From an uncultured Collinsella sp. (GTDB lineage: Bacteria; Actinomycetota; Coriobacteriia; Coriobacteriales; Coriobacteriaceae), in contig UQIW01000008.1 of assembly GCA_900541235.1 (NCBI GenBank), positions 5,910-69,909 of the forward strand: a DNA stretch of 64,000 nucleotides, read 5' to 3'. Each line of letters begins with the position of its first letter. Positions within the stretch are counted from its first letter, which is position 1. Positions 13,900 through 62,072 of the stretch are shown here, piece by piece. The position numbers and the translations under genes were made by a program. The notes beneath the pieces were generated by a model. That model was given only the letters and a program-made list of their open reading frames with translations. It did not search any database and was not told where the DNA came from.

Positions 13900-14877
13900 A
13901 TGATCATGAAGCTTTCTAAGATTGCGGCCCTGTTTATGGTGCCGGTATTGGCCTTGTGCCTTGTGGCATGTTCGGCGTCCGGTGGCAATGCGAGCGAATC
14001 TGCGAGCTCCGATCCTAAGATCGCAGAACTCACTGCGCAGAAGCCGACCAATGCCGACGAGGCCGCCGAGCTGTATGCGAAGCTCATGAAAAAGGAGAAC
14101 GATATCCTTTCGAGTGATAACGCGCTATGGGAAAAGGTATTCAATGCGGCAAATAAAGACTCGGTAATGATTGAGGACGGCAGCAATTACGGCGATTTCC
14201 TGCTCAAGACCATCGACGGTGCCAAGGATGAGTTCACGGCGGATGAGCTTAAGACGCTCAAGGCCGGTGCGCAGCAGATCAAGGAGATCGAGGACAAGCT
14301 CGAGAGCCTGGAGAAGGAGTTCCCCGGCTGTGGAAGCACGCCGAGCTCAGGCGAGAGCGTCGACGCTTCGACCGCTGGCATGACGGCTGGTGCCAATGCT
14401 TCGAGCGAGGCGACGAAGTTCCCCAGCTTTACGGGCAAAGACCTGGATGGCAACGACGTGAGCAGCGACGAGCTGTTCGCTAAGAACAAGGTCACCGTCA
14501 TGAACTTCTGGTTCACCACTTGCAAGCCGTGCGTGGGCGAGCTGGGCGATCTTGAGAAACTGAATAAGGAGCTTGCCAAGAAGGGCGGCCAGGTCGTGGG
14601 CGTCAATTCCTTTACGCTCGATGGCAACAAGGGCGAGATTGCGGATGCCAAGGACGTGCTGAGCAAGAAGGGCGTGACATATAAGAACATCTGGTTCAAG
14701 TCGGATAGCGAGGCCGGTAAGTTTACGTCAAATTTGTTCTCGTTCCCGACAACGTATGTCATCGATCAGAATGGCAACATCGTAGGGGATCCAATCGTGG
14801 GAGCCATCAGCTCCGCCGAGCAGCGCGCAGCACTCGACAAGCTTATCGACCAGGCGATTGCGAATAGCGAGCAGTAG
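13900..14877 (+). CDS. TlpA/ResA-like thiol-disulfide oxidoreductase lipoprotein
   Basis: It has a lipobox (LVAC), a Ser/Ala-rich linker and a C-terminal thioredoxin fold with a CKPC active site (WFTTCKPCVGE). A GGAGG ribosome-binding site is present. Confidence 0.75.
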   Translation: MIMKLSKIAALFMVPVLALCLVACSASGGNASESASSDPKIAELTAQKPTNADEAAELYAKLMKKENDILSSDNALWEKVFNAANKDSVMIEDGSNYGDFLLKTIDGAKDEFTADELKTLKAGAQQIKEIEDKLESLEKEFPGCGSTPSSGESVDASTAGMTAGANASSEATKFPSFTGKDLDGNDVSSDELFAKNKVTVMNFWFTTCKPCVGELGDLEKLNKELAKKGGQVVGVNSFTLDGNKGEIADAKDVLSKKGVTYKNIWFKSDSEAGKFTSNLFSFPTTYVIDQNGNIVGDPIVGAISSAEQRAALDKLIDQAIANSEQ

Positions 14878-14956: not shown

Positions 14957-14986
14957 AGAGGTCCCGCTCGGGACCTCTTCTTTTGG
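14957..14986 (+). terminator. Intrinsic terminator
   Basis: A 9-bp stem, AGAGGTCCC-gctc-GGGACCTCT, is followed by TCTTTTGG. Confidence 0.5.
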
Positions 14987-15130
14987 GCGCCGTCCCGTTC
15001 GTTTTTTGGCGCGGTTTGTTACATTCCTCACTGGCGTCGGCAAAAAATGGGGATAGAGTAGGACAAAAGCGTCGAATACGAACGGCGGAGGAGAGCGGGC
15101 AGGGTGCCTGCGCAGGAGAGGTTGCCGTCC

Positions 15131-18100
15131 ATGCTGGAGCTCAAAGGTATTTGCAAAAGGTACGTTACGCAGTCGTTTACGCAGGTAGCGCTCGACAGCG
15201 TGAGCCTGTCTTTTCGCGATAACGAGTTCGTGGCCATTCTGGGACCTTCGGGGTCGGGCAAAACTACGATGCTCAACGTTATCGGTGGGCTCGATCATTT
15301 CGATTCTGGCGACCTGCTGATCGACGGTATTTCGACCAAAGACTTTCACGATCGCGATTGGGATGCCTACCGCAACAACCGCATCGGCTTTGTGTTCCAA
15401 AGCTATAACCTCATTCCGCATCAGACCATTTTGGAAAACGTGGAGCTGGCGCTCACGCTCACGGGCGTGGGGCATGCCGAGCGTCGCCAGCGTGCGCGCG
15501 AGGCGTTGGAGAAAGTCGGCTTGGGCGAGCACGTTAACAAGCGCCCGAGCCAGCTATCGGGCGGGCAGATGCAGCGCGTGGCCATTGCCCGCGCCCTGAT
15601 TAATGATCCCGAGATTGTGCTGGCAGACGAGCCGACCGGCGCTTTGGATTCAACGACATCCGTACAGGTCATGGATCTGCTCAAGGACGTGGCACGCGAC
15701 CGCCTGGTTATCATGGTCACGCACAATCCCGAGCTGGCGTACCAATATGCCACGCGCATCGTCAACCTGGCGGACGGCAAGATCACCGACGATTCCGACC
15801 CTTTCGATGTCGCTGACGTCACGCGCCGCGAGGCCAAGCCTACGCGCAAAACCTCGATGAGCTTTGTGACGGCGCTGGGGCTTTCTGCCCGAAACCTTAT
15901 GACCAAGAAGGGCCGTACGGCCATGACTGCCTTTGCGGGCTCGATTGGCATTATCGGTATCGCAGCGATTCTGGCGCTGTCCAATGGCGTAAACGGCTAC
16001 ATCAAAAAGGTCGAGGAGGATACGCTCTCGAGCTACCCGCTCACCATTTCCAAGCAGGATTACGACCTGTCGTCCATGATGGGCGGGCAGGGGGCTGCGG
16101 ATGACGAGGCGTCCAACGGTGAGGATTTATCTGACGGTACTGGTGGCAAAGCTAAGGGAACCGATAAGATTCCCGTGGTCACGGCCGTAAAGGATATGTT
16201 TGCGAGCGTTAAGTCCAACGACATGACGAGCTTTAAGGCATGGCTCGATGCCGGTGGCGACGGCATCGATAAGGAAGTCAACGCCGTTCAGTACGGCTAC
16301 GGTGTATCGCCGGTTGTCTATCGTGCCGGCAAGGGCGACGAGAAACCCGTCCGGCTTGTTCCCAACGCTATGACTGAGGCCATGAGCGGAGGCGCGAGCT
16401 CGGCGGCAACGGTGAGCATGGAATCCATGGGAACCTCGGTCTTTAACGAGATGATTGACGACCAGAGCCTGCTCGACAGCCAGTACGATGTCGTCGCCGG
16501 TCATTGGCCCACGTCTGCCAACGAAGCCGTGATGGTGCTTTCGAGCCGCGGTACGGTGGGCGACTACACGCTCTATAGCATCGGCGCGCTGGATATCGAT
16601 GAGCTCAACGACCTGGTTAACAGTGCTATGACGGCCGACGGTGGGGTCAAAGCACCCGAGACCGGTACCGACTTTACCTACGACGATGCGCTGTCCACGA
16701 CGTTTAAGGTGCTGTCGCCGGCCGATGCCTATCGCAAAAACGAAGAGACCGGCATGTGGGCTGACATGTCTGGCGACGCCGACTTTATGGCCGCCAAGGT
16801 TGCCGACGGTATCGACGTGCGCATTGTGGGCGTGGTGCGACCTAACGAGACGGCCAATGCGAGTGCATTGTCTCCGGGCATTGCCTATACACATGCGCTG
16901 ACTCGCCGGCTTATGGAGCGCGCCGCCGATTCGCAGATTGTGCAAGAGCAGCTTGCGCATCCCGAGACGGATGTCTTTACGGGCAAGTCTTTCGATGAAC
17001 TGCAGGGCGAGGCCAAGCAAGGCGTGGATCTGGGCAGCATGTTCAGTGTGGACGAGGCGGCGCTCAAGAGCGCGCTCTCGTTCGATGCGTCTGCGCTCTC
17101 GGGTGTTGCCGGCGGTATGGACCTGTCGGGTCTTGATTTGTCCGGGCTGGATATTGACCTTTCGGGCGTTGGTAGGGACATCGACTTCAGCGACATCATG
17201 GCAAAAGCACCGGCCCCAGATTTCTCGGGTATCTTTGACGGTCTGGAACTCACGCCCGAGCAAATGCAGCAGGTGGGAACGCTTGCCAACCAACTGTTTG
17301 AGGGCTTTTTGCAGTCTGATCAGTTTAAGGCGCTGTCGCCCGAAGATCTTAAGGACGCGTCAAAGCTCGCTGCCGCATTCTCGACGTATCTTGAGAATGA
17401 TGCCGCAGCCCAGCAAATCCTGGCCCAGCTCAAAGCGCTGGGCGGCGATGTTCTTGCCGAGCGCCTGCAACAGGCGATGACCGACTATGTGCAAAAGCAG
17501 CTGGCTCCGTATCTGCAACAGGCTATGGATCAGCTGATGAAGGCGGTTAGCGAGCAGATAGCGTCGACGGTATCATCCCAGCTCAAGGTGGGCGCGGCAG
17601 GGCTCATGGACCAGATGGCGACGCAGATGTCTTCGAGTTTTGCCAACCTGGCGAGCGCTATGCATGTGGATGCGAGCGTCTTTGCCAATGCCATTCACTT
17701 CAACATGGACGCCGAGGACCTGAGCTCGCTCATGATGAGCTATGCCAAGGCTTCGAAGCTCACCTACGACAACAACCTGACCACGCTGGGCTATGCGGAC
17801 GAGGCAGACCCCATCTCGGTCAAGATTTTCCCGCGCGACTTTGAGGCCAAGGAGCGCGTACTCGATCACATCGATGCGTACAACAAGCAGGTCAAAGCCG
17901 CTGGCCATGATGATCGGGCAATTTCGTACACCGACTACATGGGCATCATCATGGGTTCGGTGACCGACATCGTGAACACCATCAGCTTGGTGCTCATCGC
18001 ATTCGTGAGTATCAGCCTGGTGGTGAGCTCCATCATGATCGGCATCATCACGTACATCAGCGTGCTGGAGCGCAAGAAGGAGATTGGCATTCTACGCGCG

Positions 18101-18382
18101 ATCGGCGCATCGAAGCGCAACGTGGCCAACGTATTCAATGCCGAGACCTTTATCGAGGGCCTCATTGCCGGCGTCTTTGCTATTGTCGTCGTGGTACTCG
18201 TGAGCTTCCCGGTCAATGCCTGGGCGCTTGCTGCCAAACAGGTACCCAATCTGATGAGCCTGCCCGTGCAGGATGCGCTGGTACTCATTGCAATTTCGGT
18301 GCTGTTGACGGTCGTTGCCGGCCTGCTGCCTGCCCGCAGCGCATCCAAGAAGGACCCCGTCGAAGCCCTGCGCTCCGAATAA
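15131..18382 (+). CDS. Fused ABC transporter ATP-binding and FtsX/MacB-type permease protein, 1083 aa
   Basis: It has a Walker A (GPSGSGKTT), the LSGGQMQRVAIARAL signature and a Walker B (LADEPTGALD). The C-terminus has the FtsX-like motif ILRAIGASKRNV and TM helices. A GGAGAGG ribosome-binding site is present. Confidence 0.85.
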   Translation: MLELKGICKRYVTQSFTQVALDSVSLSFRDNEFVAILGPSGSGKTTMLNVIGGLDHFDSGDLLIDGISTKDFHDRDWDAYRNNRIGFVFQSYNLIPHQTILENVELALTLTGVGHAERRQRAREALEKVGLGEHVNKRPSQLSGGQMQRVAIARALINDPEIVLADEPTGALDSTTSVQVMDLLKDVARDRLVIMVTHNPELAYQYATRIVNLADGKITDDSDPFDVADVTRREAKPTRKTSMSFVTALGLSARNLMTKKGRTAMTAFAGSIGIIGIAAILALSNGVNGYIKKVEEDTLSSYPLTISKQDYDLSSMMGGQGAADDEASNGEDLSDGTGGKAKGTDKIPVVTAVKDMFASVKSNDMTSFKAWLDAGGDGIDKEVNAVQYGYGVSPVVYRAGKGDEKPVRLVPNAMTEAMSGGASSAATVSMESMGTSVFNEMIDDQSLLDSQYDVVAGHWPTSANEAVMVLSSRGTVGDYTLYSIGALDIDELNDLVNSAMTADGGVKAPETGTDFTYDDALSTTFKVLSPADAYRKNEETGMWADMSGDADFMAAKVADGIDVRIVGVVRPNETANASALSPGIAYTHALTRRLMERAADSQIVQEQLAHPETDVFTGKSFDELQGEAKQGVDLGSMFSVDEAALKSALSFDASALSGVAGGMDLSGLDLSGLDIDLSGVGRDIDFSDIMAKAPAPDFSGIFDGLELTPEQMQQVGTLANQLFEGFLQSDQFKALSPEDLKDASKLAAAFSTYLENDAAAQQILAQLKALGGDVLAERLQQAMTDYVQKQLAPYLQQAMDQLMKAVSEQIASTVSSQLKVGAAGLMDQMATQMSSSFANLASAMHVDASVFANAIHFNMDAEDLSSLMMSYAKASKLTYDNNLTTLGYADEADPISVKIFPRDFEAKERVLDHIDAYNKQVKAAGHDDRAISYTDYMGIIMGSVTDIVNTISLVLIAFVSISLVVSSIMIGIITYISVLERKKEIGILRAIGASKRNVANVFNAETFIEGLIAGVFAIVVVVLVSFPVNAWALAAKQVPNLMSLPVQDALVLIAISVLLTVVAGLLPARSASKKDPVEALRSE

Positions 18383-18410
18383 TGTGACAAAGGGGCAGTC
18401 CCTTTGCCAC
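18383..18410. repeat. Family A stop-codon-adjacent palindrome (TGTGACAAAGGGGCAGTCCCTTTGCCAC)
   Basis: It lies immediately after the TAA at 18380-18382. It shares the AAAGGGrCAG core with copies at 50911, 54638 and 55893. Confidence 0.5.
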
Positions 18411-18435
18411 GTTCGTTGATATGAGAGAAGAGTAG

Positions 18436-19389
18436 ATGATTCTATCGTTGGCCCCTATGGAGGGGATTACCGGGCATGTGTTCCGTCGCGTGCATGCGGA
18501 GTGCTTCGGTGCACTCGATTGCTATTACACGCCGTTTTTGCCGCCGCCGCGGGTGGGCAACCGCTTTGGCGGCAAGGCGTTTAAGGAAGTCGATCCGGCT
18601 AACAACCAAGGGCTTAACGTGGTGCCTCAGTTGATGTCCAAGAACGCGGACGAGTTTGTGTGGGCGGCACAGGTGCTCGCCGACATGGGCTACCGCGAGG
18701 TCAATCTCAACCTTGGCTGCCCCTCGGGGACGGTTGTTGCCAAGGGCAAAGGATCGGGCTTTTTGCGCAACTTGGATGAGCTCGAGGTGTTCTTGTGTGA
18801 TGTGTGCGAGCGCTCGCCGTTGCCGGTATCGGTAAAAACCAGGCTGGGGCTGGAAAGCGACGACGAATACGAGCGCGTACTCGATCTATATTGCCGCATG
18901 CCGCTGGCAGAGCTGATCGTGCATCCGCGCGTGCAGAAGGACCGTTATGCGGGCTCGCCGCGCAAAGAGTTTTATGGCGAGACGCTGGAGCGTGCGCCGT
19001 TCCCGGTCGCCTACAACGGCGATATTTTTGATCTTGAGGATATGGACGCGCTGGTGGAGGCCTATCCCGGCACGCGCCATGTGATGTTGGGGCGTGGCCT
19101 GCTCGCGAATCCCGCTCTGGCTCGCATGGTCAACGGCGGCCTTGCTGCCACGGCAGCCGAAGTGCAGCGTTTCCACGACACACTGTTTGCGGCCTATGCA
19201 GAAGAGATTGGCGGTAACGCGGTCTTTCGTATGAAGGAGTGGTGGTTCTACGCCAAGTGCGCTTTCGCCGACCCCACTACCGTCCACAAGCTCGTACGTA
19301 AGACCAAAAAGGTCGACGAATACCGCGCCGCCGTCGAGCGCGTCTTTCGCGAGCAGCCACTTGCGCCCATAGCCCGCTTCTACGGCTAG
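18436..19389 (+). CDS. tRNA-dihydrouridine synthase (Dus family)
   Basis: It has MEGITGHVFRR, NLNLGCPS and a TIM-barrel flavin-enzyme signature. Confidence 0.85.
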   Translation: MILSLAPMEGITGHVFRRVHAECFGALDCYYTPFLPPPRVGNRFGGKAFKEVDPANNQGLNVVPQLMSKNADEFVWAAQVLADMGYREVNLNLGCPSGTVVAKGKGSGFLRNLDELEVFLCDVCERSPLPVSVKTRLGLESDDEYERVLDLYCRMPLAELIVHPRVQKDRYAGSPRKEFYGETLERAPFPVAYNGDIFDLEDMDALVEAYPGTRHVMLGRGLLANPALARMVNGGLAATAAEVQRFHDTLFAAYAEEIGGNAVFRMKEWWFYAKCAFADPTTVHKLVRKTKKVDEYRAAVERVFREQPLAPIARFYG

Positions 19390-19520
19390 TTAGCCATTGG
19401 GGACGTTCTTTAACGACTAGTCATTTTAGAACGTCCCCAATGGCTATGTTGCAAAAGCTGCACGTCAGCATCCAAAGATGTCGAAAAATGTCGACTTTGG
19501 ATGCTGGTGTACATGTTTGG
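19390..19520. repeat. Family C composite MITE-like repeat, copy 1
   Basis: It has inverted GGGGACGTTCT/AGAACGTCCCC and ACTAGTCATT/AATGACTAG modules, plus a 19-bp perfect inverted repeat CAGCATCCAAAG...CTTTGGATGCTG around the ATGTCGA direct repeats. It is about 90 percent identical to the copy at 20495-20620. Confidence 0.55.
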
Positions 19521-20494: not shown

Positions 20495-20620
20495 ACAACT
20501 AGTCATTTAAGAACGTCCCCAATGACTACCTCTGCAAAAAACTGTACACCAGCATCCAAAGATGTCGAAAAATGTCGACTTTGGATGCTGGTGTACATGT
20601 TCAGGCCGTATGGGGTGGGG
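20495..20620. repeat. Family C composite MITE-like repeat, copy 2 (direct orientation relative to copy 1)
   Basis: AACTAGTCATTTAAGAACGTCCCCAATGACTA is followed by the perfect 55-nt palindrome TGTACACCAGCATCCAAAGATGTCGAAAAATGTCGACTTTGGATGCTGGTGTACA. Confidence 0.55.
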
Positions 20621-30603: not shown

Positions 30604-30664
30604 AAGGATACCAGCTCAGCCTGCCCAGTCGGCAGCTGTACCGCTAAACGCTCCCGCCCGGCAG

Positions 30665-30775
30665 TCATCGGGGACGTTCTTAAACGACTAGTCATTGGGG
30701 ACGTTCTTGTTTGACTGGTCATTTAAGAACGTCCCCAATGACTAGTTCCGTTTGCTGGGGAGGCGTGGGACAATA
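30665..30775. repeat. Family C MITE-like repeat, copy 3 (module A only), in the 5' region of the K+ channel gene
   Basis: GGGGACGTTCTTAAACGACTAGTCATT occurs twice, followed by TTAAGAACGTCCCCAATGACTAG and a GGGGAGGCGTGGGACAAT tail. Confidence 0.5.
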
Positions 30776-45059: not shown

Positions 45060-45175
45060 TCGGCACTTGGGGACGTTCCTTTTCTGTCGGCAGCTGGGGA
45101 CACTCCTTATCTCTTCTAACTAGTCATTCAAGAACGTCCCCAATGACTAGGTGGGGAAGGCGTGAGACAATGGTG
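45060..45175. repeat. Family C MITE-like repeat, copy 4, in the divergent region between the MATE and rlmA genes
   Basis: TTGGGGACGTTCC...AACTAGTCATTCAAGAACGTCCCCAATGACTAG is followed by a GGGGAAGGCGTGAGACAAT tail that matches the copy 3 tail. Confidence 0.5.
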
Positions 45176-48669: not shown

Positions 48670-48913
48670 GGTAAAACGCGTTGTTGTGGGGCTCGCGTTG
48701 CTACCGTCCCAGATGACCCCGGGCAGACAAAAAAGGGAGGTGCCGGCTTTCGCAAGGCGCGAACCTACGAAAATCGCCGCGCGGCAACGCGGGGCGATGA
48801 GCTCGGTCGGGGGATAGGGCCCGCTTCGCCCGCCGGCCCGTAAATTGTATCATCCAGTGTGGAACGAGGATGCCCGTTGCCGCGTGCGATGGGCTTGCAA
48901 TAAGAGGAGAGCC

Positions 48914-50917
48914 ATGTCGAAGCAAGCGGTCGTTGGAATTGTGGCGCATGTCGATGCCGGCAAGACCACGCTGGCCGAGGCCATGCTGTTCAACGCGGGT
49001 CGCATTCGCAAGCGCGGCCGCGTGGACGATGGTGATTCGCATCTGGACACTGACGCGATCGAGCGCGAGCGTGGCATCACGATTTTCTCGTCGCAGGCCG
49101 TACTCGACCATGGCGATACCCACGTCATGCTCGTGGATGCACCGGGGCATGTCGATTTTTCGGCCGAGGCGGAGCGCACATTGCGCGCGCTGGACTACGC
49201 GATTTTAGTTGTGGGCGCCAACGACGGCGTGCAGGGGCACACCGAAACCCTGTGGCGCCTGCTTGCACGCTATGACATCCCGACGTTCATCTATATCAAC
49301 AAAATCGATTTGGAGAATCCCGGCCGCGATGTTTTGCTGGCACAACTTGGGCAACGTCTTTCCGAGGGCTGCCTGGATGCCAGCGAACTGCTGGCGGGCG
49401 GCTCCGTTCAGGAGGACGCTGCTGCGTTGGACGAGGCGGCGCTCGAGGAGTTTCTTGAGGCGGGTGAGCTTTCTGTCGCAATGCTGTCACGCATGGTTGC
49501 CGAGCGCAAATTGTTTCCCTGCTTTGCGGGATCGGCGCTCAAGGACCAGGGTGTGGCAGAGCTGCTCGACGGCATATGTGCTCTGATGCGCGAGCGAACA
49601 TGGCCCCAGGAGTTCGCCGCGCGTGTCTACCGCGTGAGTCGTGGAGAGCGTGGCGAGCGTCTTGCCTGGGTCAAGGTGACGGGCGGCATGCTGCATGCCA
49701 AGCAGATGATTAGCGGACGTTCCGGTGCCGAGGCATGGGAGCAGAAGGTCGATCAGGTGCGCATCTATAACGGCGAGAAGTATGAGCTTGCCCAAGAAGT
49801 TGCCGCTGGCGGTATTTGTGCCGTGACGGGTCTTGCGCACGTTCGCCCAGGGGACGCCCTGGGTGCGGAGCCCGCGGGCGATGCGCCTGTCATTGCGCCG
49901 GTTCTCACCTATACGGTGCTTCCGGGCGAACACGATGTCCACGCGGTGTTCAAAGCACTGACAGAGTTAGCGGACGAAGATCCTATGCTCGGCGTAAGCT
50001 GGAATACTCATCTGGAGCAGATTCACCTGCAGCTGATGGGCGCCGTGCAACTCGAGGTCGTGCAGCGGGTGTTGGCAGATCGTTTTGGCCTTTCGATTGC
50101 GTTTGAGCCCGGCGGCATTCTCTATAAGGAGACTATTTCGCAGCCGGTCGAGGGCGTGGGCCACTTTGAGCCGCTGCGCCACTATGCCGAGGTACATCTG
50201 CGTTTGGAGCCGTTACCGGCGGGCTCGGGCGTGCAATTTGGCACCGTGACCTCGACTGACGAGCTCGACTTGAACTGGCAGCGTCTGGCGCTCACCAACG
50301 CCATGGAGCGCGATCACCTGGGCGTGCTGACTGGCTCGCCCGTCACCGATGTGCGCATTACGCTCACGGGCGGCCGTGCGCATGCCAAACACACCGAGGG
50401 CGGCGATTTTCGCCAGGCCACGTACCGCGCGATTCGCCAGGGGTTCATGCAGGCGCGTGAGGCGGGCGCGGCGGTGCTGTTGGAGCCGTGGTACCACTTT
50501 GAGCTCGAGGTGCCGGGGGAGTGTGTGGGCCGGGCGCTTTCGGATGCTACGCGTATGGGTGCCGAGTACGAGCCGCCGACGATGGCGGGAGACCGCGCCA
50601 AGCTCATGGGCCGCGTGCCGGCATCCGAAGTGCAGGATTACGCGCTGGAGGTGGCTGCCTATACGAGTGGCCGCGGGCATCTGTACCTGGAGTTTGCCGG
50701 CCACGCGCCCTGTCATGATGCTGAGCGCGTAATTGAGGCGGCCGCCTATAAGCCCGAGGCCGATCTGCCCAATACGCCCGACTCGGTCTTCTGCTCTCAT
50801 GGCGCCGGCTACACCGTCAAGTGGCACGACGTCCCCGCCACGGCGCACGTAAAGGTCGATCCCGCCACCTTTCGCCCCTGGCGAGCAGCAGACGCCGAGT
50901 TTTTCGGCCACATGTGA
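48914..50917 (+). CDS. TetM/TetO/TetW-family ribosomal-protection-type translational GTPase (EF-G paralog), 667 aa
   Basis: The G-motifs are AHVDAGKTTL, DAPGHVDF and INKID, which resemble TetM-type more than EF-G-type (AHIDAGKTT/NKMD). It has EF-G domains II-V. GAGGAG precedes the ATG at 48914, and the stop lies inside palindrome A2. Confidence 0.75.
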   Translation: MSKQAVVGIVAHVDAGKTTLAEAMLFNAGRIRKRGRVDDGDSHLDTDAIERERGITIFSSQAVLDHGDTHVMLVDAPGHVDFSAEAERTLRALDYAILVVGANDGVQGHTETLWRLLARYDIPTFIYINKIDLENPGRDVLLAQLGQRLSEGCLDASELLAGGSVQEDAAALDEAALEEFLEAGELSVAMLSRMVAERKLFPCFAGSALKDQGVAELLDGICALMRERTWPQEFAARVYRVSRGERGERLAWVKVTGGMLHAKQMISGRSGAEAWEQKVDQVRIYNGEKYELAQEVAAGGICAVTGLAHVRPGDALGAEPAGDAPVIAPVLTYTVLPGEHDVHAVFKALTELADEDPMLGVSWNTHLEQIHLQLMGAVQLEVVQRVLADRFGLSIAFEPGGILYKETISQPVEGVGHFEPLRHYAEVHLRLEPLPAGSGVQFGTVTSTDELDLNWQRLALTNAMERDHLGVLTGSPVTDVRITLTGGRAHAKHTEGGDFRQATYRAIRQGFMQAREAGAAVLLEPWYHFELEVPGECVGRALSDATRMGAEYEPPTMAGDRAKLMGRVPASEVQDYALEVAAYTSGRGHLYLEFAGHAPCHDAERVIEAAAYKPEADLPNTPDSVFCSHGAGYTVKWHDVPATAHVKVDPATFRPWRAADAEFFGHM

Positions 50918-50943
50918 CAAAGGGACAGTTCCTTTGTCACATG
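50911..50943. repeat. Family A palindrome (CATGTGACAAAGGGACAGTTCCTTTGTCACATG) containing the TGA stop of the upstream gene
   Basis: It is a 13-bp stem whose ATGTGA encodes the terminal Met plus the stop codon. Confidence 0.55.
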
Positions 50944-51010
50944 CTATTGGTATAACTCGGTACAAGTTGGTATAACTATTGCCAAGGTTTGCCAATCCGA
51001 GGAGGCCGAC

Positions 51011-52129
51011 ATGAATCCAAATCCCTTTAAGCCCACGGCTGGCAAGCGGCCTCCGATACTCATCGGTCGCGAGTCGGTCATCGAAGATTTCGAGGAAGGG
51101 CTCGATAACGGCGCCGGAGCGCCGGGCAGGCTCATACTCATTACGGGAAACCGCGGTTGCGGCAAGACGGTTCTCCTGCGGGAGCTGCAACGTCTAGCCA
51201 ATGAGCGCGGATGGGCGGTTGTCTCCGATTCCGCTTCGCTTGGCTTATGCGACCGCTTGGCCGATGCACTTCGCTCGAATAAACCCGTTGTGACGTCAAT
51301 GGAACTCAGTCCATCATTCGGGCGCATGTCGGTCGAGGCGGCGCGTGCAAAGGGTGAAACGCTGCGCGGGCTGGTCAACGAGCGCCTTAAGAAGCTCGAT
51401 CCAGGCAAAGGCATGCTGTTTGCGATTGACGAGGCACAATCGGCGTCTATCGAGGAGCTGGCGGCCCTTGCCGTTCTCTATCAGCAGGTGCTCGGAGACC
51501 AGGATGCCACGGGCTTGTCCGATAGCGACCAGCGCGGTCTTGCGCTGGTGTTTGCCGGCTTACCCAGTATGGTTGACGATCTGCTCGAAGAGCCGAGCGT
51601 GACGTTTTTGCGGCGTGCCCAGCAGCGTACGCTGGGGGCGATTTCTTTGCCCAAGGTGCGCGATTCATATATCCAGACGGTCAAAAACGCTGGTCTTTAC
51701 GTTGACGCGGGGACGGCGGATCTTGCGGCACACAAGAGCATGGGGCATCCCTATATGGTTCAGCTGGTGGGCTATTACATGTGGCGCTCTGCTGTCCGGC
51801 GTGGCTCGCAAGTCATCGAAAGGCACGATGTCGAGGATGGCCATGCGGATGCCGTCTCCGAGTTCTACGAAGCGGTTGACGCGCCTCTATATTACGGGCT
51901 GCGCAGTCCACAGCGCCTTTTTATCGAGGCCATGGCGGTTGACGAGGGCAAACCGACTCGCATGGCGGATATCATTGAGCGCTGCGATCGCACCCAGAGC
52001 TGGGCGAGCAAATATCGCGCAAGCCTGATTCGCGAGCGTGTCATCGAGGCTGCCGGATACGGCCTCGTCCGATTTACCGTGCCCATGCTGGGCGCGTACG
52101 TTCGCGATCGAGTTTTATGGCATGAGTAG
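51011..52129 (+). CDS. COG1672/Arch_ATPase-type AAA+ ATPase (paralog 1)
   Basis: It starts MNPNPFKPTAGKRPPILIGRESVIEDFEEGL. It has a Walker A (GNRGCGKTVLL), a Walker B (LFAIDEAQ) and SVTFLRRAQQ. It is a clear paralog of the protein at 54676-55776. Confidence 0.7.
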   Translation: MNPNPFKPTAGKRPPILIGRESVIEDFEEGLDNGAGAPGRLILITGNRGCGKTVLLRELQRLANERGWAVVSDSASLGLCDRLADALRSNKPVVTSMELSPSFGRMSVEAARAKGETLRGLVNERLKKLDPGKGMLFAIDEAQSASIEELAALAVLYQQVLGDQDATGLSDSDQRGLALVFAGLPSMVDDLLEEPSVTFLRRAQQRTLGAISLPKVRDSYIQTVKNAGLYVDAGTADLAAHKSMGHPYMVQLVGYYMWRSAVRRGSQVIERHDVEDGHADAVSEFYEAVDAPLYYGLRSPQRLFIEAMAVDEGKPTRMADIIERCDRTQSWASKYRASLIRERVIEAAGYGLVRFTVPMLGAYVRDRVLWHE

Positions 52130-52154
52130 GGTGATAAAGGTGACGGAACAGAAG

Positions 52155-54635
52155 ATGAGCCCGCAGGCTATCGAGGTACGCGGCGCGCGCGTCCATAACC
52201 TCAAAGACATCGATATCGATATTCCGCTGGGAAAGCTGGTGGGTATTGCCGGCGTATCGGGTTCGGGCAAGAGTTCGCTGGCACTGGGGGTTCTTTATGC
52301 CGAGGGTTCGCGCCGCTACTTGGAAGCGCTCAGCACCTATACTCGACGTCGCCTGACGCAGGCCGAACACGCCCAGGTGGATGAGGTATTGCACGTACCG
52401 GCGGCGCTCGCATTGCATCAGCGCCCCAGCGTGCCGGGCGTGCGCTCGACCTTTGGTACCATGACCGAGCTCAACAACAGCCTGCGCCTGCTCTTTAGCC
52501 GTTGCGCCCATCACGTGTGTCCGCACTGCGGGGCGCGCGTGGAGCCGAGCCTTAACGTGGCTGCGGGCCTGTCGCTCACGTGCCCTGCATGCGGTCGCGA
52601 GTTCTACGCGCCGAGCGCCGAGGACCTTGCCTTTAACAGCGGCGGTGCCTGTCCCACCTGCGGCGGCACCGGTGTCATGCGCGAGGTGGACGAAGCGAGC
52701 CTGGTGCCCGATGAGTCAAAGACTATCAACGAGGGCGCGGTGCTTCCCTGGGGTACGCTCATGTGGGATCTGATGAAGCAAGTGGCTGGCGAGATGGGCG
52801 TGCGCACCGATGTGCCGTTTAACCAGCTCACGCCTGAAGAACGCGACATCGTGTTCCACGGCCCGGCGGTTAAGAAGCACATTCTCTACGTTCCCAAAAA
52901 CGGCGAGGGTGCCACGCCGCTCGACTTCACCTATTACAACGCCGTCTATACCGTCGAGAATGCGCTCGCCAAGGTTAAGGACGACAAGGGCCTCAAACGC
53001 GTTGCGCGCTTTTTGCGCGAGGGAGCATGCCGCGATTGCGGCGGCACGCGTCTCTCCGAGGCTGCGCGCCAGCCCCAGGTGTGCGGTATCAATCTGGCGC
53101 AGGCCGCGGCCATGACGCTTGGCGATGCGGTTGAGTGGGTGCGCGGGGTGCCCGCATCCTTGCCGCCCGAGATGCGGCCCATGGCGACGGATATCTGCGA
53201 TTCGTTTTTGAGCGTGGCCCGTCGTCTGGTCGACCTGGGTCTCGATTACCTTTCACTCGACCGCGCTGGTGCCACGCTCTCCACGGGTGAGCGCCAGCGC
53301 GTTCAGCTCGCCCGCGTGGTGCGCAACCGATCGACGGGCGTGCTCTATGTGCTGGACGAGCCTTCGATCGGCTTACATCCCGCCAATGTCGACGGCTTGG
53401 TGGGCGTGATGCGCGATCTGGTGGATGACGGCAACACCGTGGTTGTTGTCGACCACGATACGCGCGTACTGGCGGAAGCCGACTATCTGGTCGAGATGGG
53501 CCCCGTTGCCGGAGCAGGCGGCGGCAGTGTAATCGCCGCTGGTACGGTAGACGAGGTCGAGCAATCGCAGGGCAGCCGTATCGCGCCGTTTTTGCGCGCC
53601 GAGCTCAAGCGCTTGCGTCCGCAGGTGACTGACGACGAAATGTTCGACCAGGGACATATCCGCATGGCAACCGATGCCATCCATACCGTCAAGCCGCTCG
53701 AGGTTGATATCCCGCGCGGCCGCCTTGTCGCGGTAACGGGCGTTTCGGGTTCGGGTAAGACGACGCTCGTGCTCGAGACGCTCATTCCTGCACTTAAGGC
53801 GCAGGCAGCTGGCGAGCGCTTGCCGGGGCACGTGCGTTGGGTCGATGCCGAGGGCATTGGCCGCGCAAATCTGATTGACGCTACGCCCATCGGCGCCAAC
53901 GTACGCTCGACGGTAGCGACCTATGCCGACATTCATGACGAGCTGCGCCGCGCCTTCGCCCGTACGCCCGAGGCTAAGGCAGCCGGCTACAAGGCGGGCG
54001 CCTTTAGCTACAACACCGGCGCCTTGCGCTGCCCTACGTGTGACGGCACGGGCTCGATATCGCTCGACGTGCAGTTTTTGCCCGACGTCGAGATCATCTG
54101 CCCGGCATGCCGTGGTTCGCGCTACGCCGAGGCCGCCTCGCATATCCATCGCGAGGGCAAGGACGGGAGCTTGCTTACGTTGCCGCAGCTCATGGACATG
54201 AGTGTGGACGAGGCCCTCGACGCCACGGTGGGACTCAAGAAAGTCCAGGCGCGCTTGCAGACCTTGCATGACCTAGGCTTGGGCTATCTCACGCTCGGTG
54301 AGCCCACGCCGGCGCTCTCGGGCGGCGAGGCACAACGCCTTAAGCTCGCGAGCGAGATGGGCCGCGTGCAGGACGATGCCGTGTTCGTATTCGACGAGCC
54401 CACGATCGGACTACATCCGCTCGATGTTCAGGTGTTGCTGAGTGTGTTCGACGGCCTTGTTTCCAAGGGCGCCACGGTTATCGTGATCGAACACGATCTC
54501 GACCTTATCCGTAACGCCGATTATGTGATCGACATGGGCCCGGGCGGTGGCGACGCCGGCGGGCAAATCGTCTGCGCCGGCACGCCGGCGGATATCGCTG
54601 CCTGTCCCAAGAGCGTTACTGGCCGCTACCTATAG
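52155..54635 (+). CDS. UvrA paralog (class II/UvrA2-like excinuclease ABC subunit A homolog), about 826 aa
   Basis: It has two ABC ATPase modules (GVSGSGKSSL, GVSGSGKTTL, LSGGEAQR signatures) and zinc-finger modules (CPHCG, CPACG, CPTCGGTG, CPTCDGTG). It is shorter than canonical UvrA, and the UvrB-binding region is apparently absent. It starts MSPQAIEVRGARVHNLKDIDIDIP. Confidence 0.8.
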   Translation: MSPQAIEVRGARVHNLKDIDIDIPLGKLVGIAGVSGSGKSSLALGVLYAEGSRRYLEALSTYTRRRLTQAEHAQVDEVLHVPAALALHQRPSVPGVRSTFGTMTELNNSLRLLFSRCAHHVCPHCGARVEPSLNVAAGLSLTCPACGREFYAPSAEDLAFNSGGACPTCGGTGVMREVDEASLVPDESKTINEGAVLPWGTLMWDLMKQVAGEMGVRTDVPFNQLTPEERDIVFHGPAVKKHILYVPKNGEGATPLDFTYYNAVYTVENALAKVKDDKGLKRVARFLREGACRDCGGTRLSEAARQPQVCGINLAQAAAMTLGDAVEWVRGVPASLPPEMRPMATDICDSFLSVARRLVDLGLDYLSLDRAGATLSTGERQRVQLARVVRNRSTGVLYVLDEPSIGLHPANVDGLVGVMRDLVDDGNTVVVVDHDTRVLAEADYLVEMGPVAGAGGGSVIAAGTVDEVEQSQGSRIAPFLRAELKRLRPQVTDDEMFDQGHIRMATDAIHTVKPLEVDIPRGRLVAVTGVSGSGKTTLVLETLIPALKAQAAGERLPGHVRWVDAEGIGRANLIDATPIGANVRSTVATYADIHDELRRAFARTPEAKAAGYKAGAFSYNTGALRCPTCDGTGSISLDVQFLPDVEIICPACRGSRYAEAASHIHREGKDGSLLTLPQLMDMSVDEALDATVGLKKVQARLQTLHDLGLGYLTLGEPTPALSGGEAQRLKLASEMGRVQDDAVFVFDEPTIGLHPLDVQVLLSVFDGLVSKGATVIVIEHDLDLIRNADYVIDMGPGGGDAGGQIVCAGTPADIAACPKSVTGRYL

Positions 54636-54637
54636 AC

Positions 54638-54670
54638 AATGAGGCAAAGGGACAGTCCCTTTGCCTCATT
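54638..54670. repeat. Family A-like palindrome (AATGAGGCAAAGGGACAGTCCCTTTGCCTCATT) 2 nt after the uvrA-paralog stop
   Basis: It is a perfect hairpin with the shared AAAGGGACAG core. Confidence 0.55.
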
Positions 54671-54675
54671 GATGC

Positions 54676-55776
54676 CTATTTCACGCACTGAGCGGAGAGA
54701 TAGTCGCGGAAGAATGGCAATTCAAATGCGACGAGCCCTCGTCCTCGCTCCCCGATGATGCCGGCGTCTATCATGCGGCGTCGGTAGCGGGAGACCTGCT
54801 GCGGCGAACGCCTAAGGCGCTCGACAAGGTCAGCGGTGGTGGACTCTTCCTCGTCATCGAGCATGGCGATGAGGAATCGCTTGTCCTCTGCAGTGAGTTC
54901 CCGATAGGTTGCCGCGAGGATTCGGTCGTCCATCTCGTCGCGCGCGATTTTGATTCCCAGGTCAAAGTCGCGTGACGAGATCTCCTTCGAATCGCTTGTG
55001 AGATCCCAGGCACGGTAGCCTACGAGTTGCAATAGGAAGGGAAAACCAGAGATCGAGCGAACGGCTCTATCGATTCCCTCAGCATCTGCCAAGCGATCGT
55101 TTTCCTGGATCGTGCGAATCAAGGCCTCGCGTACGTCATAGTCGGCAATGCGACCCAGATGATATTGTTGGGCGCGGCGAAGGAACGAGACCGTCTTGTG
55201 GTTCAGCAACGTCGAGACGTTGTTGGGAAGTCCCGCCATGAGCAGGGCGACGCGTTTCCCATCGGTCACAAAGTGCTGATACGTCGCTGCGAGCTGAATC
55301 ATCTCGTCGAGTGTCGGGTCCACCTCGTCAACCGTGACGAGCAGACCGGTGCCCGCCTCGTTGAGCTGGTCGATGATGTCGCTCATGCGATAACGCCAGG
55401 TTGAGGCATCGTGGACACGATTGACCTCGATGCTGCCGAGCGGTGCAATTCCGAGGCCGGTGACTTCGAAGTGGTTGGACGGGTCGATGAGATGGGCTGC
55501 GGCGCGTTTCGCCCCGAACTCGAGTTCCTCAAGCATTCCCGGGAGCGCGGTCGTCTTTACGGCTATCCAGCCGTGGGATTCCGCCCTTGTCGCGAGCGAC
55601 GACATGAGAGCGGTTTTACCGGTTCCACGCGCGCCTGAGAAGATCGAGGTCAATTCTGGGCGCCTGCGCTGGCTCAAGAAGGCACGGTCCAAATCCCGAA
55701 TAATCTGTTGTCTGCCAGCGAGATGGGCGGGAACCTCACCAAAACTGGGGGTAAACGGGTTCTCGAGATATTCCAC
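54676..55776 (-). CDS. COG1672/Arch_ATPase-type AAA+ ATPase (paralog 2)
   Basis: It starts MEYLENPFTPSFGEVPAHLAGRQQIIRDL. It has a Walker A (GARGTGKTALM), a Walker B (LLVTVDEVD), TVSFLRRAQQ and a C-terminal wHTH-like tail. Confidence 0.7.
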   Translation of the reverse strand: MEYLENPFTPSFGEVPAHLAGRQQIIRDLDRAFLSQRRRPELTSIFSGARGTGKTALMSSLATRAESHGWIAVKTTALPGMLEELEFGAKRAAAHLIDPSNHFEVTGLGIAPLGSIEVNRVHDASTWRYRMSDIIDQLNEAGTGLLVTVDEVDPTLDEMIQLAATYQHFVTDGKRVALLMAGLPNNVSTLLNHKTVSFLRRAQQYHLGRIADYDVREALIRTIQENDRLADAEGIDRAVRSISGFPFLLQLVGYRAWDLTSDSKEISSRDFDLGIKIARDEMDDRILAATYRELTAEDKRFLIAMLDDEEESTTADLVERLRRSPQQVSRYRRRMIDAGIIGERGRGLVAFELPFFRDYLSAQCVK

Positions 55777-55892
55777 AAGGCTCTCCTTTCACACCGCCGT
55801 TTAACTTCATTTTACTTTAGTTAATTCTGATTAAAAGTGAGGCTCTTTATCTAGAGCATCAATTGGGCGTGTGTGCCATCGGCGTGGCGCCT

Positions 55893-55927
55893 GAATGTGA
55901 CAAAGGGGCAGTTCCTTTGTCACATTC
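55893..55927. repeat. Family A palindrome (GAATGTGACAAAGGGGCAGTTCCTTTGTCACATTC) containing the stop of trmL on the minus strand
   Basis: It is a 14-bp stem, and the minus-strand reading ATGTGA gives Met plus stop for trmL. Confidence 0.55.
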
Positions 55928-56519
55928 CCGGAAAGCCTGTTTGGCGTAGGGCCTCGTAGAGGACGATGGCGGCGCTGTTGGAGAGGTTGAGTGCGCTGAT
56001 GCGGTAGTCGTCCGGATTGACGAAGTTGCCGCAGATATCCTGCCGAAGGATGGCCTCATGGCCGTCCTCGATATGCCCCAGCGATTCCTCGTGGGCTTCC
56101 CAGGCCTCGGCGTTATCGAGCGAGTCGCAATCGCGCAGCATCGGGATGCGCTCGCAACGCTCGGACGCCGCGGCAAGCAGTGGCTCGGGAATGCCCGAGC
56201 TCTCGCTGCCAAAGACCAAGTAGTCTCCATCGCGGTAGGTACTCTGCGCATAGGTGCGGCGTGCCTTTTTGGTCAGCAGATGCAGGCTACCATCGGCAGG
56301 GGAGAGGTCGTTGCGCGCAAGAAAATCCTCCCAGCCGGCATAGGTCGTCACGTCCAAGTTTTGCCAGTAGCCCAGGCCGGCGCGGCGCACTGTCTTGTCG
56401 TCGAGCGAAAAGCCCAGGGGCTCCACCAGATGCAGGCGGGCACCGGTAACCACGCAGGTGCGGCCGATATTGCCCGTATTGGCCGGAATCTCGGGCGCGT
56501 ACAGCACGATGTTGAACAT
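55920..56519 (-). CDS. trmL: tRNA (cytidine/uridine34-2'-O)-methyltransferase TrmL (SpoU/TrmH family)
   Basis: It starts MFNIVLYAPEIPANTGNIGRTC and has the SPOUT knot motifs. AAGGAG precedes the ATG at 56519. Confidence 0.8.
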   Translation of the reverse strand: MFNIVLYAPEIPANTGNIGRTCVVTGARLHLVEPLGFSLDDKTVRRAGLGYWQNLDVTTYAGWEDFLARNDLSPADGSLHLLTKKARRTYAQSTYRDGDYLVFGSESSGIPEPLLAAASERCERIPMLRDCDSLDNAEAWEAHEESLGHIEDGHEAILRQDICGNFVNPDDYRISALNLSNSAAIVLYEALRQTGFPGM

Positions 56520-56614
56520 GAATCTCCTTGGCTCAGAACGAAAAACCACCACGAAGGGCACCTTCGTGGTGGTTTGGCGGTTACGTAGGCGGAAAAATGC
56601 CCGCTTGGATAAAC

Positions 56615-61075: not shown

Positions 61076-61915
61076 CTATGCCTCCTCGAGGTCGAGCTGG
61101 TTGTTGGCGATGTCCTGGGCGGTTGCGCGGTAGAGCTCGTCGATAAAGGCGACCTTAAAGCTTGCCGGGGCGTCGGCGACAGCGGCGGCACGCGAGCCGG
61201 CAACGTTGTAGACGGCGGTGCCGCAGACGGCGGCCGTAAACGGGTCGGCAGCGCAGGCGTACACAGCCAGCACGCCGCCCTGCGAGCAGCCGCAACCGGT
61301 GATCTTGGACATGAGCGGGCTGCCGCCGTGAGACTTGGCCACGGTCGTGCCGTCGGTAATCAGGTCGACTTCGCCCGAGACCACAACGGCGCCGCCGGTG
61401 TAGCGGGCGAGCGCCACGGCGGCATCGCGGGCGGCGTCTACCGTGTCGGTGGTATCGACACCGCGTACGCGGCTCAAATCGGCCGCCTCGCCCTCAAGAC
61501 CCCACAGGCCGGCGAGCGCGATGATCTCGGAGGCGTTGCCGCGCACGATGGCGGGCTTGTACTGCTTGAGCTCATTTACCAGCTGGGTGCGCAGGCTACC
61601 GATACCCAGGCCCACCGGATCGAGCACCCAGGGCTTACCGGCGTCGTGTGCCGCTTTGGCCGCGCGGGGAATCGTTTGCTCGTAAATGGGGAAGAGCGTG
61701 CCCATGTTGAGATAGATGGCGCCGCCGCCGGCAACGAGTGCCTCGCCCTCGTCGGGCAGATAGACCATGGCGGCTGATCCGCCCACGGCGAGCTGTGCGT
61801 TGGCGACAAAGTCGATCGTCACCGTGTTGGTGATGGAGCCGGCCATCGGATTGGTGGTGTGAATCTCCTCCACGGCCTTGACCATATGTTGTTTAAGCTG
61901 TTCCGAATCAATCAC
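61076..61915 (-). CDS. thiM: Hydroxyethylthiazole kinase
   Basis: It has ThiM motifs (NTVTIDFVANAQLA, GCGCSQGG). A GTG start at 61915 follows AAGGAGG by 8 nt. Confidence 0.85.
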   Translation of the reverse strand: MIDSEQLKQHMVKAVEEIHTTNPMAGSITNTVTIDFVANAQLAVGGSAAMVYLPDEGEALVAGGGAIYLNMGTLFPIYEQTIPRAAKAAHDAGKPWVLDPVGLGIGSLRTQLVNELKQYKPAIVRGNASEIIALAGLWGLEGEAADLSRVRGVDTTDTVDAARDAAVALARYTGGAVVVSGEVDLITDGTTVAKSHGGSPLMSKITGCGCSQGGVLAVYACAADPFTAAVCGTAVYNVAGSRAAAVADAPASFKVAFIDELYRATAQDIANNQLDLEEA

Positions 61916-61940
61916 TGCACATGCCTCCTTGGCATAGAAA

Positions 61941-61968
61941 AGGGGCGCTGTGCATAGACAGCGCCCCT
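61941..61968 (-). terminator. Riboswitch-associated intrinsic terminator (expression platform)
   Basis: The minus-strand RNA forms ACAGGGGCGCUGUCUAUGCACAGCGCCCCUUUUCU, between the aptamer and the thiM ribosome-binding site. Confidence 0.55.
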
Positions 61969-61974
61969 GTAAAG

Positions 61975-62072
61975 GCGGCATGCTCCCTACGCCAGCATTA
62001 ACTGACAGGTTCAAAGGATTGGGCCCCATGCCCTCTCAGCCTTGTGGTTTGCACCGCCGGCACTCCCGCATC
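61975..62072 (-). ncRNA. TPP (THI-box) riboswitch controlling thiM-ykoF-thiE
   Basis: The minus-strand RNA contains GGGAGUGCC...GCUGAGA...CCUUUGAACCUGUCAGUUAAUGCUGGCGUAGGGA. This matches the THI element consensus (CUGAGA, ACCUGAUCUGGAUAAUGCCAGCGUAGGGA) in the 5' leader of thiamine genes. Confidence 0.75.

Follow-up and report, generated by a model that had tools for sequence, protein, structure and literature searches.

An untagged REP-like palindrome family at gene 3' ends in Collinsella and related bacteria

Repetitive extragenic palindromes (REPs) are mostly located less than 20 bp from the upstream open reading frame's (ORF's) 3' end, in spacers between unidirectional or convergent genes, and their ends often supply the stop codon (PMC3733652). 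REPs situated less than 16 nt from a stop codon are reported to down-regulate translation, and these elements have been linked to stabilization of mRNA 3' ends and to attenuation (PMC12306157). The Coriobacteriia (Actinomycetota) were covered neither by the survey of tagged REPs nor by the RepRanger paper. Here we describe family A, a palindrome that recurs in a 64,000-nt stretch of DNA from an uncultured Collinsella species (GenBank assembly GCA_900541235.1, contig UQIW01000008.1, positions 5,910 to 69,909 of the forward strand), the whole of which is called the window below. Collinsella is an abundant and heavily studied genus of the human gut, and we know of no description of the way its transcripts end. 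Family A is a real, well-defined and apparently undescribed repeat family, of a kind familiar from REPs and overturning nothing known about them. We favor the view that it is a lineage-specific, untagged REP-like dispersed palindrome of Collinsella/Coriobacteriaceae and of Atopobiaceae, which most likely acts as an mRNA 3'-end hairpin.

Like REPs, which are dispersed many-copy extragenic palindromes of 20-40 bp, long known from proteobacteria and found in Enterobacteria, Pseudomonas, and others, family A (a dyad of 31-35 bp) lies near the 3' ends of upstream ORFs, and both are substrates for rearrangement. Since stop codons in REP ends have already been described (PMC3733652), this feature is not special to family A. 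There are also differences. A REP has an imperfect stem and a loop, whereas family A is a near-perfect dyad with a one-base center. It also lacks the unpaired GTAG or CGTC tag of the tagged REP superfamilies: of 418 flanks none has GTAG and 11 have CGTC, which is about the chance level, and the flank consensus is only gA...T(C/G). In contrast to REPINs (inverted REP doublets) and bacterial interspersed mosaic elements (BIMEs), family-A copies are almost always singletons; only four adjacent pairs were found, with gaps of 10-151 nt (loci L105, L097, L022/L029/L052, and L037). Finally, no gene for a REP-associated tyrosine transposase (RAYT) flanked by family-A copies turned up in about 2 Mb of loci around the copies, which were searched with an approximate query that makes this a weak negative.

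Family A can be compared with two other known systems as well. The palindromic elements of Rickettsia are likewise dispersed and able to overlap coding sequence, but they lie in frame inside genes, whereas family A supplies just the last codon and the stop. The DNA uptake sequences of Neisseria and the uptake signal sequences of Pasteurellaceae resemble family A as conserved short sequences occurring as inverted pairs at gene ends, where the pairs form terminator-like inverted repeats. In contrast to them, the half-site of family A is not over-represented alone: neither CAAAGGGAC nor its complement occurs outside palindromes in the window, and an enrichment of half-sites in the manner of DNA uptake sequences was rejected for this reason. 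We know of no link between family A and competence.

Four copies in the window

The search of the window with the pattern CAAAGGGRCAGTYCCTTTG gave four matches (18388-18406, 50918-50936, 54645-54663, and 55901-55919) against a chance expectation of 0.02, and an inverted-repeat finder extended them to dyads of 31-35 bp. The copies, with their scores under a covariance model built on 130 distinct copies, are as follows.

Copy 1: 18382..18412, imperfect 31-bp palindrome ATGTGACAAAGGGGCAGTCCCTTTGCCACGT, 50.6 bits
Copy 2: 50911..50943, 33-bp palindrome with one G·T, CATGTGACAAAGGGACAGTTCCTTTGTCACATG, 53.5 bits
Copy 3: 54637..54671, perfect 35-bp palindrome CAATGAGGCAAAGGGACAGTCCCTTTGCCTCATTG, 53.8 bits
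Copy 4: 55893..55927, 35-bp palindrome GAATGTGACAAAGGGGCAGTTCCTTTGTCACATTC, 56 bits

The next best match to the model in the window, searched with filters off, had 10.2 bits. The four recurring copies reported in the preliminary description are therefore present, and the model finds no fifth. The window has a G+C content of about 59% and about 96% identity to Collinsella contigs.

All four copies touch or contain a stop codon. The genes bearing them match Pfam families (ABC_tran+FtsX, EF-G/TetM-like, UvrA-like, AAA_16, and TrmL), in agreement with the identities proposed earlier from the sequence. Copy 1 begins with the final A of the TAA stop (18380-18382) that closes the ABC_tran+FtsX gene (15104..18382, plus strand), and the Dus gene starts at 18436, 23 nt downstream of the copy. 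The EF-G/TetM-like GTPase gene (48845..50917, plus strand) ends with ...GHM* on ATG (50912-50914) and TGA (50915-50917), both inside copy 2. Similarly, the TrmL gene (55920..56519/56561, minus strand) ends with ...PGM* on ATG-TGA (55925-55920) within copy 4, so that the translations of both genes bear out the earlier observation of a final Met codon and a stop supplied by the stem. Copy 3, whose arms are the compensated variant ATGAGGC/GCCTCAT, fills nearly the whole 40-nt gap between two convergent genes: the TAG of the UvrA-like gene ends at 54635, 1 nt before the palindrome, and the AAA_16+HTH gene (54676..55776, minus strand) stops 4 nt after it.

The stems had been described as perfect. 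This does not hold for copy 1, in which T·G, A·C, and G·T are mismatched and which has a predicted RNA fold of -17.6 kcal/mol (z -2.5); the values for copies 2-4 are -24.8 to -30.4 kcal/mol. The individual values are -24.8 kcal/mol for copy 2 (z -5.9), -27.6 and -30.4 kcal/mol for the two strands of copy 3, and -28.3 kcal/mol on the mRNA strand and -28.9 on the other for copy 4; the z scores of the four copies range from -2.5 to -7.5. The reported absence of a U-tract was upheld, as no T-run follows any of the four copies and a terminator scan flags none of them. The supposed GGGACAG loop is in fact part of the stem: GGGAC pairs with GTCCC, the dyad reaches a single central base, and the RNA loop has 3-7 nt.

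Sequence, distribution and position at gene ends

A scan of species-level genomes and a scan of metagenomes each gave at least 120 matches. Because the first scan carried over a bias from the four window copies, only the outer arms served as anchor in the metagenome scan. Nearly all genome matches listed are from Collinsella or from gut bins, and about ten are from Atopobiaceae (Olsenella, Tractidigestivibacter, and Paratractidigestivibacter). Among the metagenome matches listed, the contigs with a source stated in the record name are human-gut assemblies. A match in Dethiothermospora (L014), a single occurrence, is probably an unrelated hairpin, and a bin labeled Sodaliphilus (L117) bears the Collinsella ABC-transporter site and is thus probably contaminated. 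Among 2.9 million viral contigs one carries the element, with flanks that match a site in Collinsella loci (L005 and L012), and phage carriage was rejected on this ground. The sample used for positions comprises 320 copies among the matches listed, all at least 300 nt from locus ends, in 57 site clusters. The Chao1 estimate is about 118 site clusters, and we estimate 100 or so family-A sites per pangenome sample; most sites are common to several species.

Searches for a named element agreed with the earlier statement that none is recognized. No Rfam family matches family A: the only hit in the window at the gathering threshold is a thiamine pyrophosphate (TPP) riboswitch, the region 50700-56100 gave only microRNA-type hairpin noise far below the threshold at E values up to 10, and a scan of 14 loci gave no match. 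A full-text literature search for the palindrome sequence found no paper, and literature on Collinsella and palindromes yielded an unrelated structured-RNA survey alone.

The consensus of the family is gA-ATGTGACAAAGGGAC-A/T-GTCCCTTTGTCACAT-T(c/g), a dyad of 31-35 bp with an A/T-rich stem middle (CAAAGGG), in which arm positions 1, 2, 3, 5, and 7-15 are at least 90% conserved. The inner 9-bp half-sites, together with G5/C27, are nearly invariant, although in the first sample this invariance of the core is partly an ascertainment effect. The remaining outer-arm positions vary and yet stay complementary. Positions 4/28 are occupied by T-A (89 copies), A-T (14), C-G (7), or G-C (5), and positions 6/26 by A-T (98) or G-C (8); the pairs 2/30 and 3/29 switch as well, so that the covarying outer-arm positions are 2, 3, 4, and 6. 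In the covariation test 69 cells were changed on both sides, compared with 20.2 +/- 3.8 in shuffled data and none of 500 shuffles as high, which confirms the covariation of the stem arms that was first noticed in the window. Pairing of the arms is 93.5% against 37-55% in slid controls, and orthologous copies display 15 position-by-site switches from one Watson-Crick pair to another, with both G·T and A·C intermediates present. Base-pairing of the outer arms is thus kept by compensatory change.

The center behaves differently from a free loop. In a search that made no assumption about it, the 7-mer GACAGTC was found in 48 of 98 copies with distinct flanks, and the others were one or two substitutions away; the center is therefore conserved as sequence, and what had been taken for a conserved loop is a conserved stem. 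At orthologous sites the base in the center alternates between A and T, with an excess of A over T on the sense strand (23:10 clusters, 53:21 copies), which is the only strand asymmetry found. The R/Y "wobble" pattern, which was drawn from four copies, does not reflect selection on an RNA strand: the counts of G·U and A·C in the sense orientation show no asymmetry (16:16, 23:13, and 33:32). Downstream of the dyad, positions 32-37 have a T at +1 only and no bias after it. Copies from Atopobiaceae (Olsenella/Tractidigestivibacter loci) have ATGAGAC...GTCTCAT at the place of the Collinsella ATGTGAC, which indicates a concerted, lineage-specific evolution of family A.

To place the copies relative to genes we used calls from a simple codon-usage gene finder, in which starts are rough and distances to stops are reliable. 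The distance from the palindrome to the nearest end of a strong ORF, in either orientation, was distributed over the site clusters as follows.

Stop inside the palindrome: 18 of 57 clusters
Stop 0-15 nt away: 18 of 57 clusters
Stop 16-150 nt away: 10 of 57 clusters
No strong ORF end within 150 nt: 11 of 57 clusters

Thus a stop codon is contained in the palindrome or lies at most 15 nt from it in 36 of 57 clusters (63%), and in one locus (L047) the stops of both convergent genes fall within the palindrome arms. The statement that copies are always at stop codons remains true of the four in the window and has to be relaxed to about 63% across all sites; the placement rule is strong, not absolute. 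In tandem spacers the stop and the element are a median of 3 nt apart (no more than 11 nt in 62 of 81), whereas for the T-tailed hairpins of these loci the median is 27 nt (no more than 11 nt in 7 of 31). The idea that adjacency to stops is a mere habit of the genome, at which the window hinted, was overturned by this larger sample. The median distance from the element to the next start codon is 91 nt, and in the metagenome sample all 12 tandem cases have the element nearer to the upstream stop than to the downstream start. Once over-long ORF starts had been trimmed, no copy lay inside a confidently called gene. The sampled copies thus support the original view of a REP-like dispersed palindrome family that is concentrated at gene 3' ends and lacks a U-tract.

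At two genes the element occupies the place of a terminator. In the window and five other loci a peroxiredoxin-like gene (13900..14877) is followed by a spacer of about 110 nt that ends in a canonical terminator:

14957-14984: terminator of the peroxiredoxin-like gene, AGAGGTCCC-GCTC-GGGACCTCT+TCTTTT, also written GAGGTCCC-GCTC-GGGACCTC+TTCTTTT

In L118 the same gene instead has a family-A copy 6 nt past its stop, and in L038 a different T-tailed terminator. Similarly, trmL carries the element in aerofaciens-type genomes and a strong T-tailed terminator at the same place in a C. tanakaei-like contig; in other relatives a convergent gene lies 5-50 nt away. The terminal Met of TrmL is ancestral, since homologues end with ...GFPGM, ...GFAGME, or ...GFPGMA, and therefore the ATG of the palindrome falls on a codon that the gene already had. 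Read-through tails of the form ...CDKGTVPLSH were seen only in frameshifted gene calls. As a separate observation, a G+C-rich tandem-like repeat, GGCGGCGCGTAGGCGGCGCGTGGCGGCGCGTAGGCGGCACGCGG, is located 3' of trmL, in the family-A position, in a Parafannyhessea-like contig (L249, 2143-2272).

Family A shares with intrinsic terminators a strong hairpin directly 3' of genes, the same position at these two genes, and usability from both strands between convergent genes. It differs from them in the lack of a T/U tract, in the closer approach to the stop, and in being one repeated, conserved sequence rather than a set of individually evolved hairpins. Terminators without a U-tract, called I-shaped, have been proposed for Actinobacteria; they are heterogeneous hairpins, and their activity in vitro is disputed. 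Family A resembles them in its high-GC Gram-positive host and in forming a gene-end hairpin without a U-trail, and differs in that it is a single repeated sequence.

Possible function and copy dynamics

The compensatory changes in the arms, the proximity to stops, and the replacement of terminators lead us to consider an mRNA 3'-end hairpin the probable role of family A. On transcription of the upstream gene the element would fold, right where the coding region ends, into an RNA hairpin of 14-17 bp (-18 to -30 kcal/mol). Such a hairpin would define the 3' end of the mRNA and protect it against 3'-to-5' exonucleases, and it may weakly attenuate read-through in both directions without a U-tract. 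REP elements of enterobacteria act in this way. It may also lower expression of the upstream gene, because its 5' arm lies in the footprint of the terminating ribosome. At the DNA level the copies are substrates for recombination with one another. What the data show is the repetition, the dyad symmetry, the covariation, the closeness to stops, the substitution for canonical terminators, and the recombination between copies; selection on RNA structure, termination, and stabilization are what we infer, and the same applies to every other step at the RNA level.

With a single 31-bp sequence at about 100 gene ends by estimate, family A would be a useful landmark when operon boundaries are annotated. 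It is also a part that genetic tools for Coriobacteriia could take up as it stands, and it offers a test case for whether U-tract-less hairpins terminate or only stabilize transcripts in Actinomycetota. It explains the spurious read-through ORF calls ending with ...CDKGTVPLSH. It also extends REP-like biology to a phylum and to a form (untagged, a perfect dyad, no RAYT seen) outside the existing REP surveys.

Several observations weigh against a 3'-end hairpin. The lack of a U-tract makes efficient intrinsic termination doubtful. There is no G·U preference on the mRNA strand, therefore selection on single RNA pairs is undetectable, and a DNA-level process could keep up the pairing. In about 28% of tandem cases the next start lies at most 35 nt past the element, so that read-through must be common. 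The split of copy-bearing spacers into tandem, convergent, and divergent (27/11/6) is not clearly unlike the background (272/106/89), and the depletion of copies in divergent spacers (6 of 44 against 19% in the background) is not significant. Some copies lie between divergent genes, including an orthologous cluster of 11 members; no tRNA or other noncoding RNA was found beside the copies in divergent spacers, which are truly located between two gene starts. For about 19% of clusters no strong ORF ends at 150 nt or less from the copy. Finally, orthologous copies are conserved no better than their flanks (95.2% vs 93.7%).

Part of this evidence would suit a repeat that is mainly selfish or neutral, copied or homogenized by a DNA-level process (such as hairpin-dependent transposition by a putative enzyme, or conversion between arms and between copies) and having no RNA function, with copies building up next to stops only because insertions elsewhere are purged. 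We regard this explanation as possible and give it limited credence. In its favor are the equal numbers of G·U and A·C mismatches in the sense orientation, the sequence conservation of the whole 31 bp, including a center that pure structure would leave free, the lineage-specific consensus that points to concerted evolution, the copies in divergent spacers, and the lack of extra conservation relative to flanks. Such a repeat would also fit the partial deletions and 1.5-copy forms: the 346 sites compared include a microhomology deletion in L006 and a 1.5-copy form in L057/L026. Nevertheless, the same 346 sites contain no precise filled/empty pairs and no target-site duplications, and most sites are shared by several species. 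No transposase was seen in association with family A, and the genes between two copies are of ordinary and varied kinds. The sole Y1 (IS200-like) transposase homologues seen in the approximate-query search of about 2 Mb of copy-bearing loci are two genes (L071 and L004) flanked by hairpins of another family, AAACCACC...GGTGGTTT, with no family-A copy nearby, which is an indicative result only. The occupation of a canonical terminator's place at two genes and a distance to stops far tighter than that of T-tailed terminators also argue against a purely selfish element.

Recombination between copies is indicated by the variable site between the ABC transporter and Dus genes. Six loci have two copies flanking a variable segment of 0.15-3.8 kb, which encodes a 391-aa protein or LysR, an aldo-keto reductase, and a flavodoxin, whereas the window (copy 1) and three other loci have a single copy joining the outer flanks. 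The single and double states form the pattern expected of recombination between copies. In L086 the synteny with the window is lost precisely where a family-A copy lies. The genes located between two copies include those for a DUF4143 ATPase, NUDIX, GNAT, LysR, aldo-keto reductase, flavodoxin, and MFS proteins, with no transposase among them; enrichment of a particular gene family was rejected in view of this diversity. Two proteins encoded in the variable slot, of 391 aa (L051, 555..1730, minus strand) and 377 aa (L077, 1546..2679, minus strand), have no Pfam match.

A rather unlikely extension of these data is that the palindrome is the site of a putative Coriobacteriia-specific, non-RAYT enzyme that binds DNA or RNA hairpins, which would copy or homogenize the element and use it as an operon-end breakpoint for segment swaps. 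Such an enzyme would explain at once why the entire dyad is conserved in sequence in two bacterial families, why the consensus is specific to a lineage, and why variable segments have copies at their borders, and, if it exists, would constitute a new repeat-plus-enzyme system.

Improbable, in our view, is a double-stranded DNA site for a dimeric nucleoid-associated or regulatory protein that reads the two CAAAGGGAC half-sites. The perfect dyad about a single central base and the nearly invariant inner half-sites with G5/C27 would fit such a protein, but the compensatory changes at arm positions 2, 3, 4, and 6 would not be expected, the copies are at gene 3' ends and not in promoter regions, the half-sites are not enriched beyond palindromes, and the invariance of the core owes something to how the first copies were sampled. 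A site-specific recombination site bounding mobile gene cassettes, like attC of integrons, is scarcely credible: copies directly following cassette-sized genes, the two-copy and single hybrid-copy states of the ABC-Dus site, the synteny break in L086, and several single genes flanked by two copies are all in its favor, but no integrase or recombinase was found beside the arrays among the neighboring genes scanned, the flanked genes differ in orientation, no cassette was found at more than one site, the palindrome is perfectly symmetric with neither extrahelical bases nor a GTTRRRY-type core, and homologous recombination between operon-end repeats of 31-35 bp would give the same pattern.

Other repeats and neighboring genes

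The hairpins around the Y1 genes belong to a third hairpin family, which has matches in 13 of 121 loci and one member in the window, where it has a T-tail. This family and the Y1 homologue may represent a genuine REP-RAYT or IS200 system in Collinsella.

L071, 5999-6020 and 6678-6702: AAACCACC...GGTGGTTT hairpins around the Y1 gene
L004, 1163-1187 and 1859-1880: AAACCACC...GGTGGTTT hairpins around the Y1 gene
Window, 56543-56575: AAACCACC...GGTGGTTT hairpin with a T-tail

A second and more abundant repeat family has the core TTGGGGACGTTCTT / AAGAACGTCCCCAA with flanks ACTAGTCAT (8 matches vs 0.31 expected). It forms long hairpins and multi-arm arrays and, unlike family A, also occurs between divergent genes (30660-30745) and upstream of genes.

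Window, 19391-19446, 20500-20530, 30660-30745, and 45060-45150: members with the TTGGGGACGTTCTT core
L070, about 880-940: member with the TTGGGGACGTTCTT core
L071, 7129-7192: member with the TTGGGGACGTTCTT core

Two near-identical hairpins of about 50 nt (CAGCATCCAAAGATGTCGAAAAATGTCGACTTTGGATGCTG...) are present in direct orientation at 19461-19511 and 20545-20595. They bracket about 1.1 kb without a confident gene, between the Dus gene and 20645, and may mark where a small unit, mobile or duplicated, begins and ends.

Right after copy 2 and upstream of the AAA_16 gene that starts at 51011, the direct repeat TTGGTATAACT occurs at 50947-50957 and 50967-50977, 20 nt apart, and looks like an operator or promoter element. 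The UvrA-like ABC ATPase gene (52038..54635, plus strand) is located between two genes for AAA_16 ATPases (51011..52129, plus strand, and 54676..55776, minus strand), one of which has a winged helix-turn-helix domain. In L086 the first AAA_16 gene has no UvrA-like gene with it and lies between family-A copies. This cluster may be an accessory or defense-type module. Finally, the TPP riboswitch (RF00059, 61967-62077, minus strand, 55.9 bits) overlaps the ORF 61076..62029 (minus strand) at its annotated 5' end.

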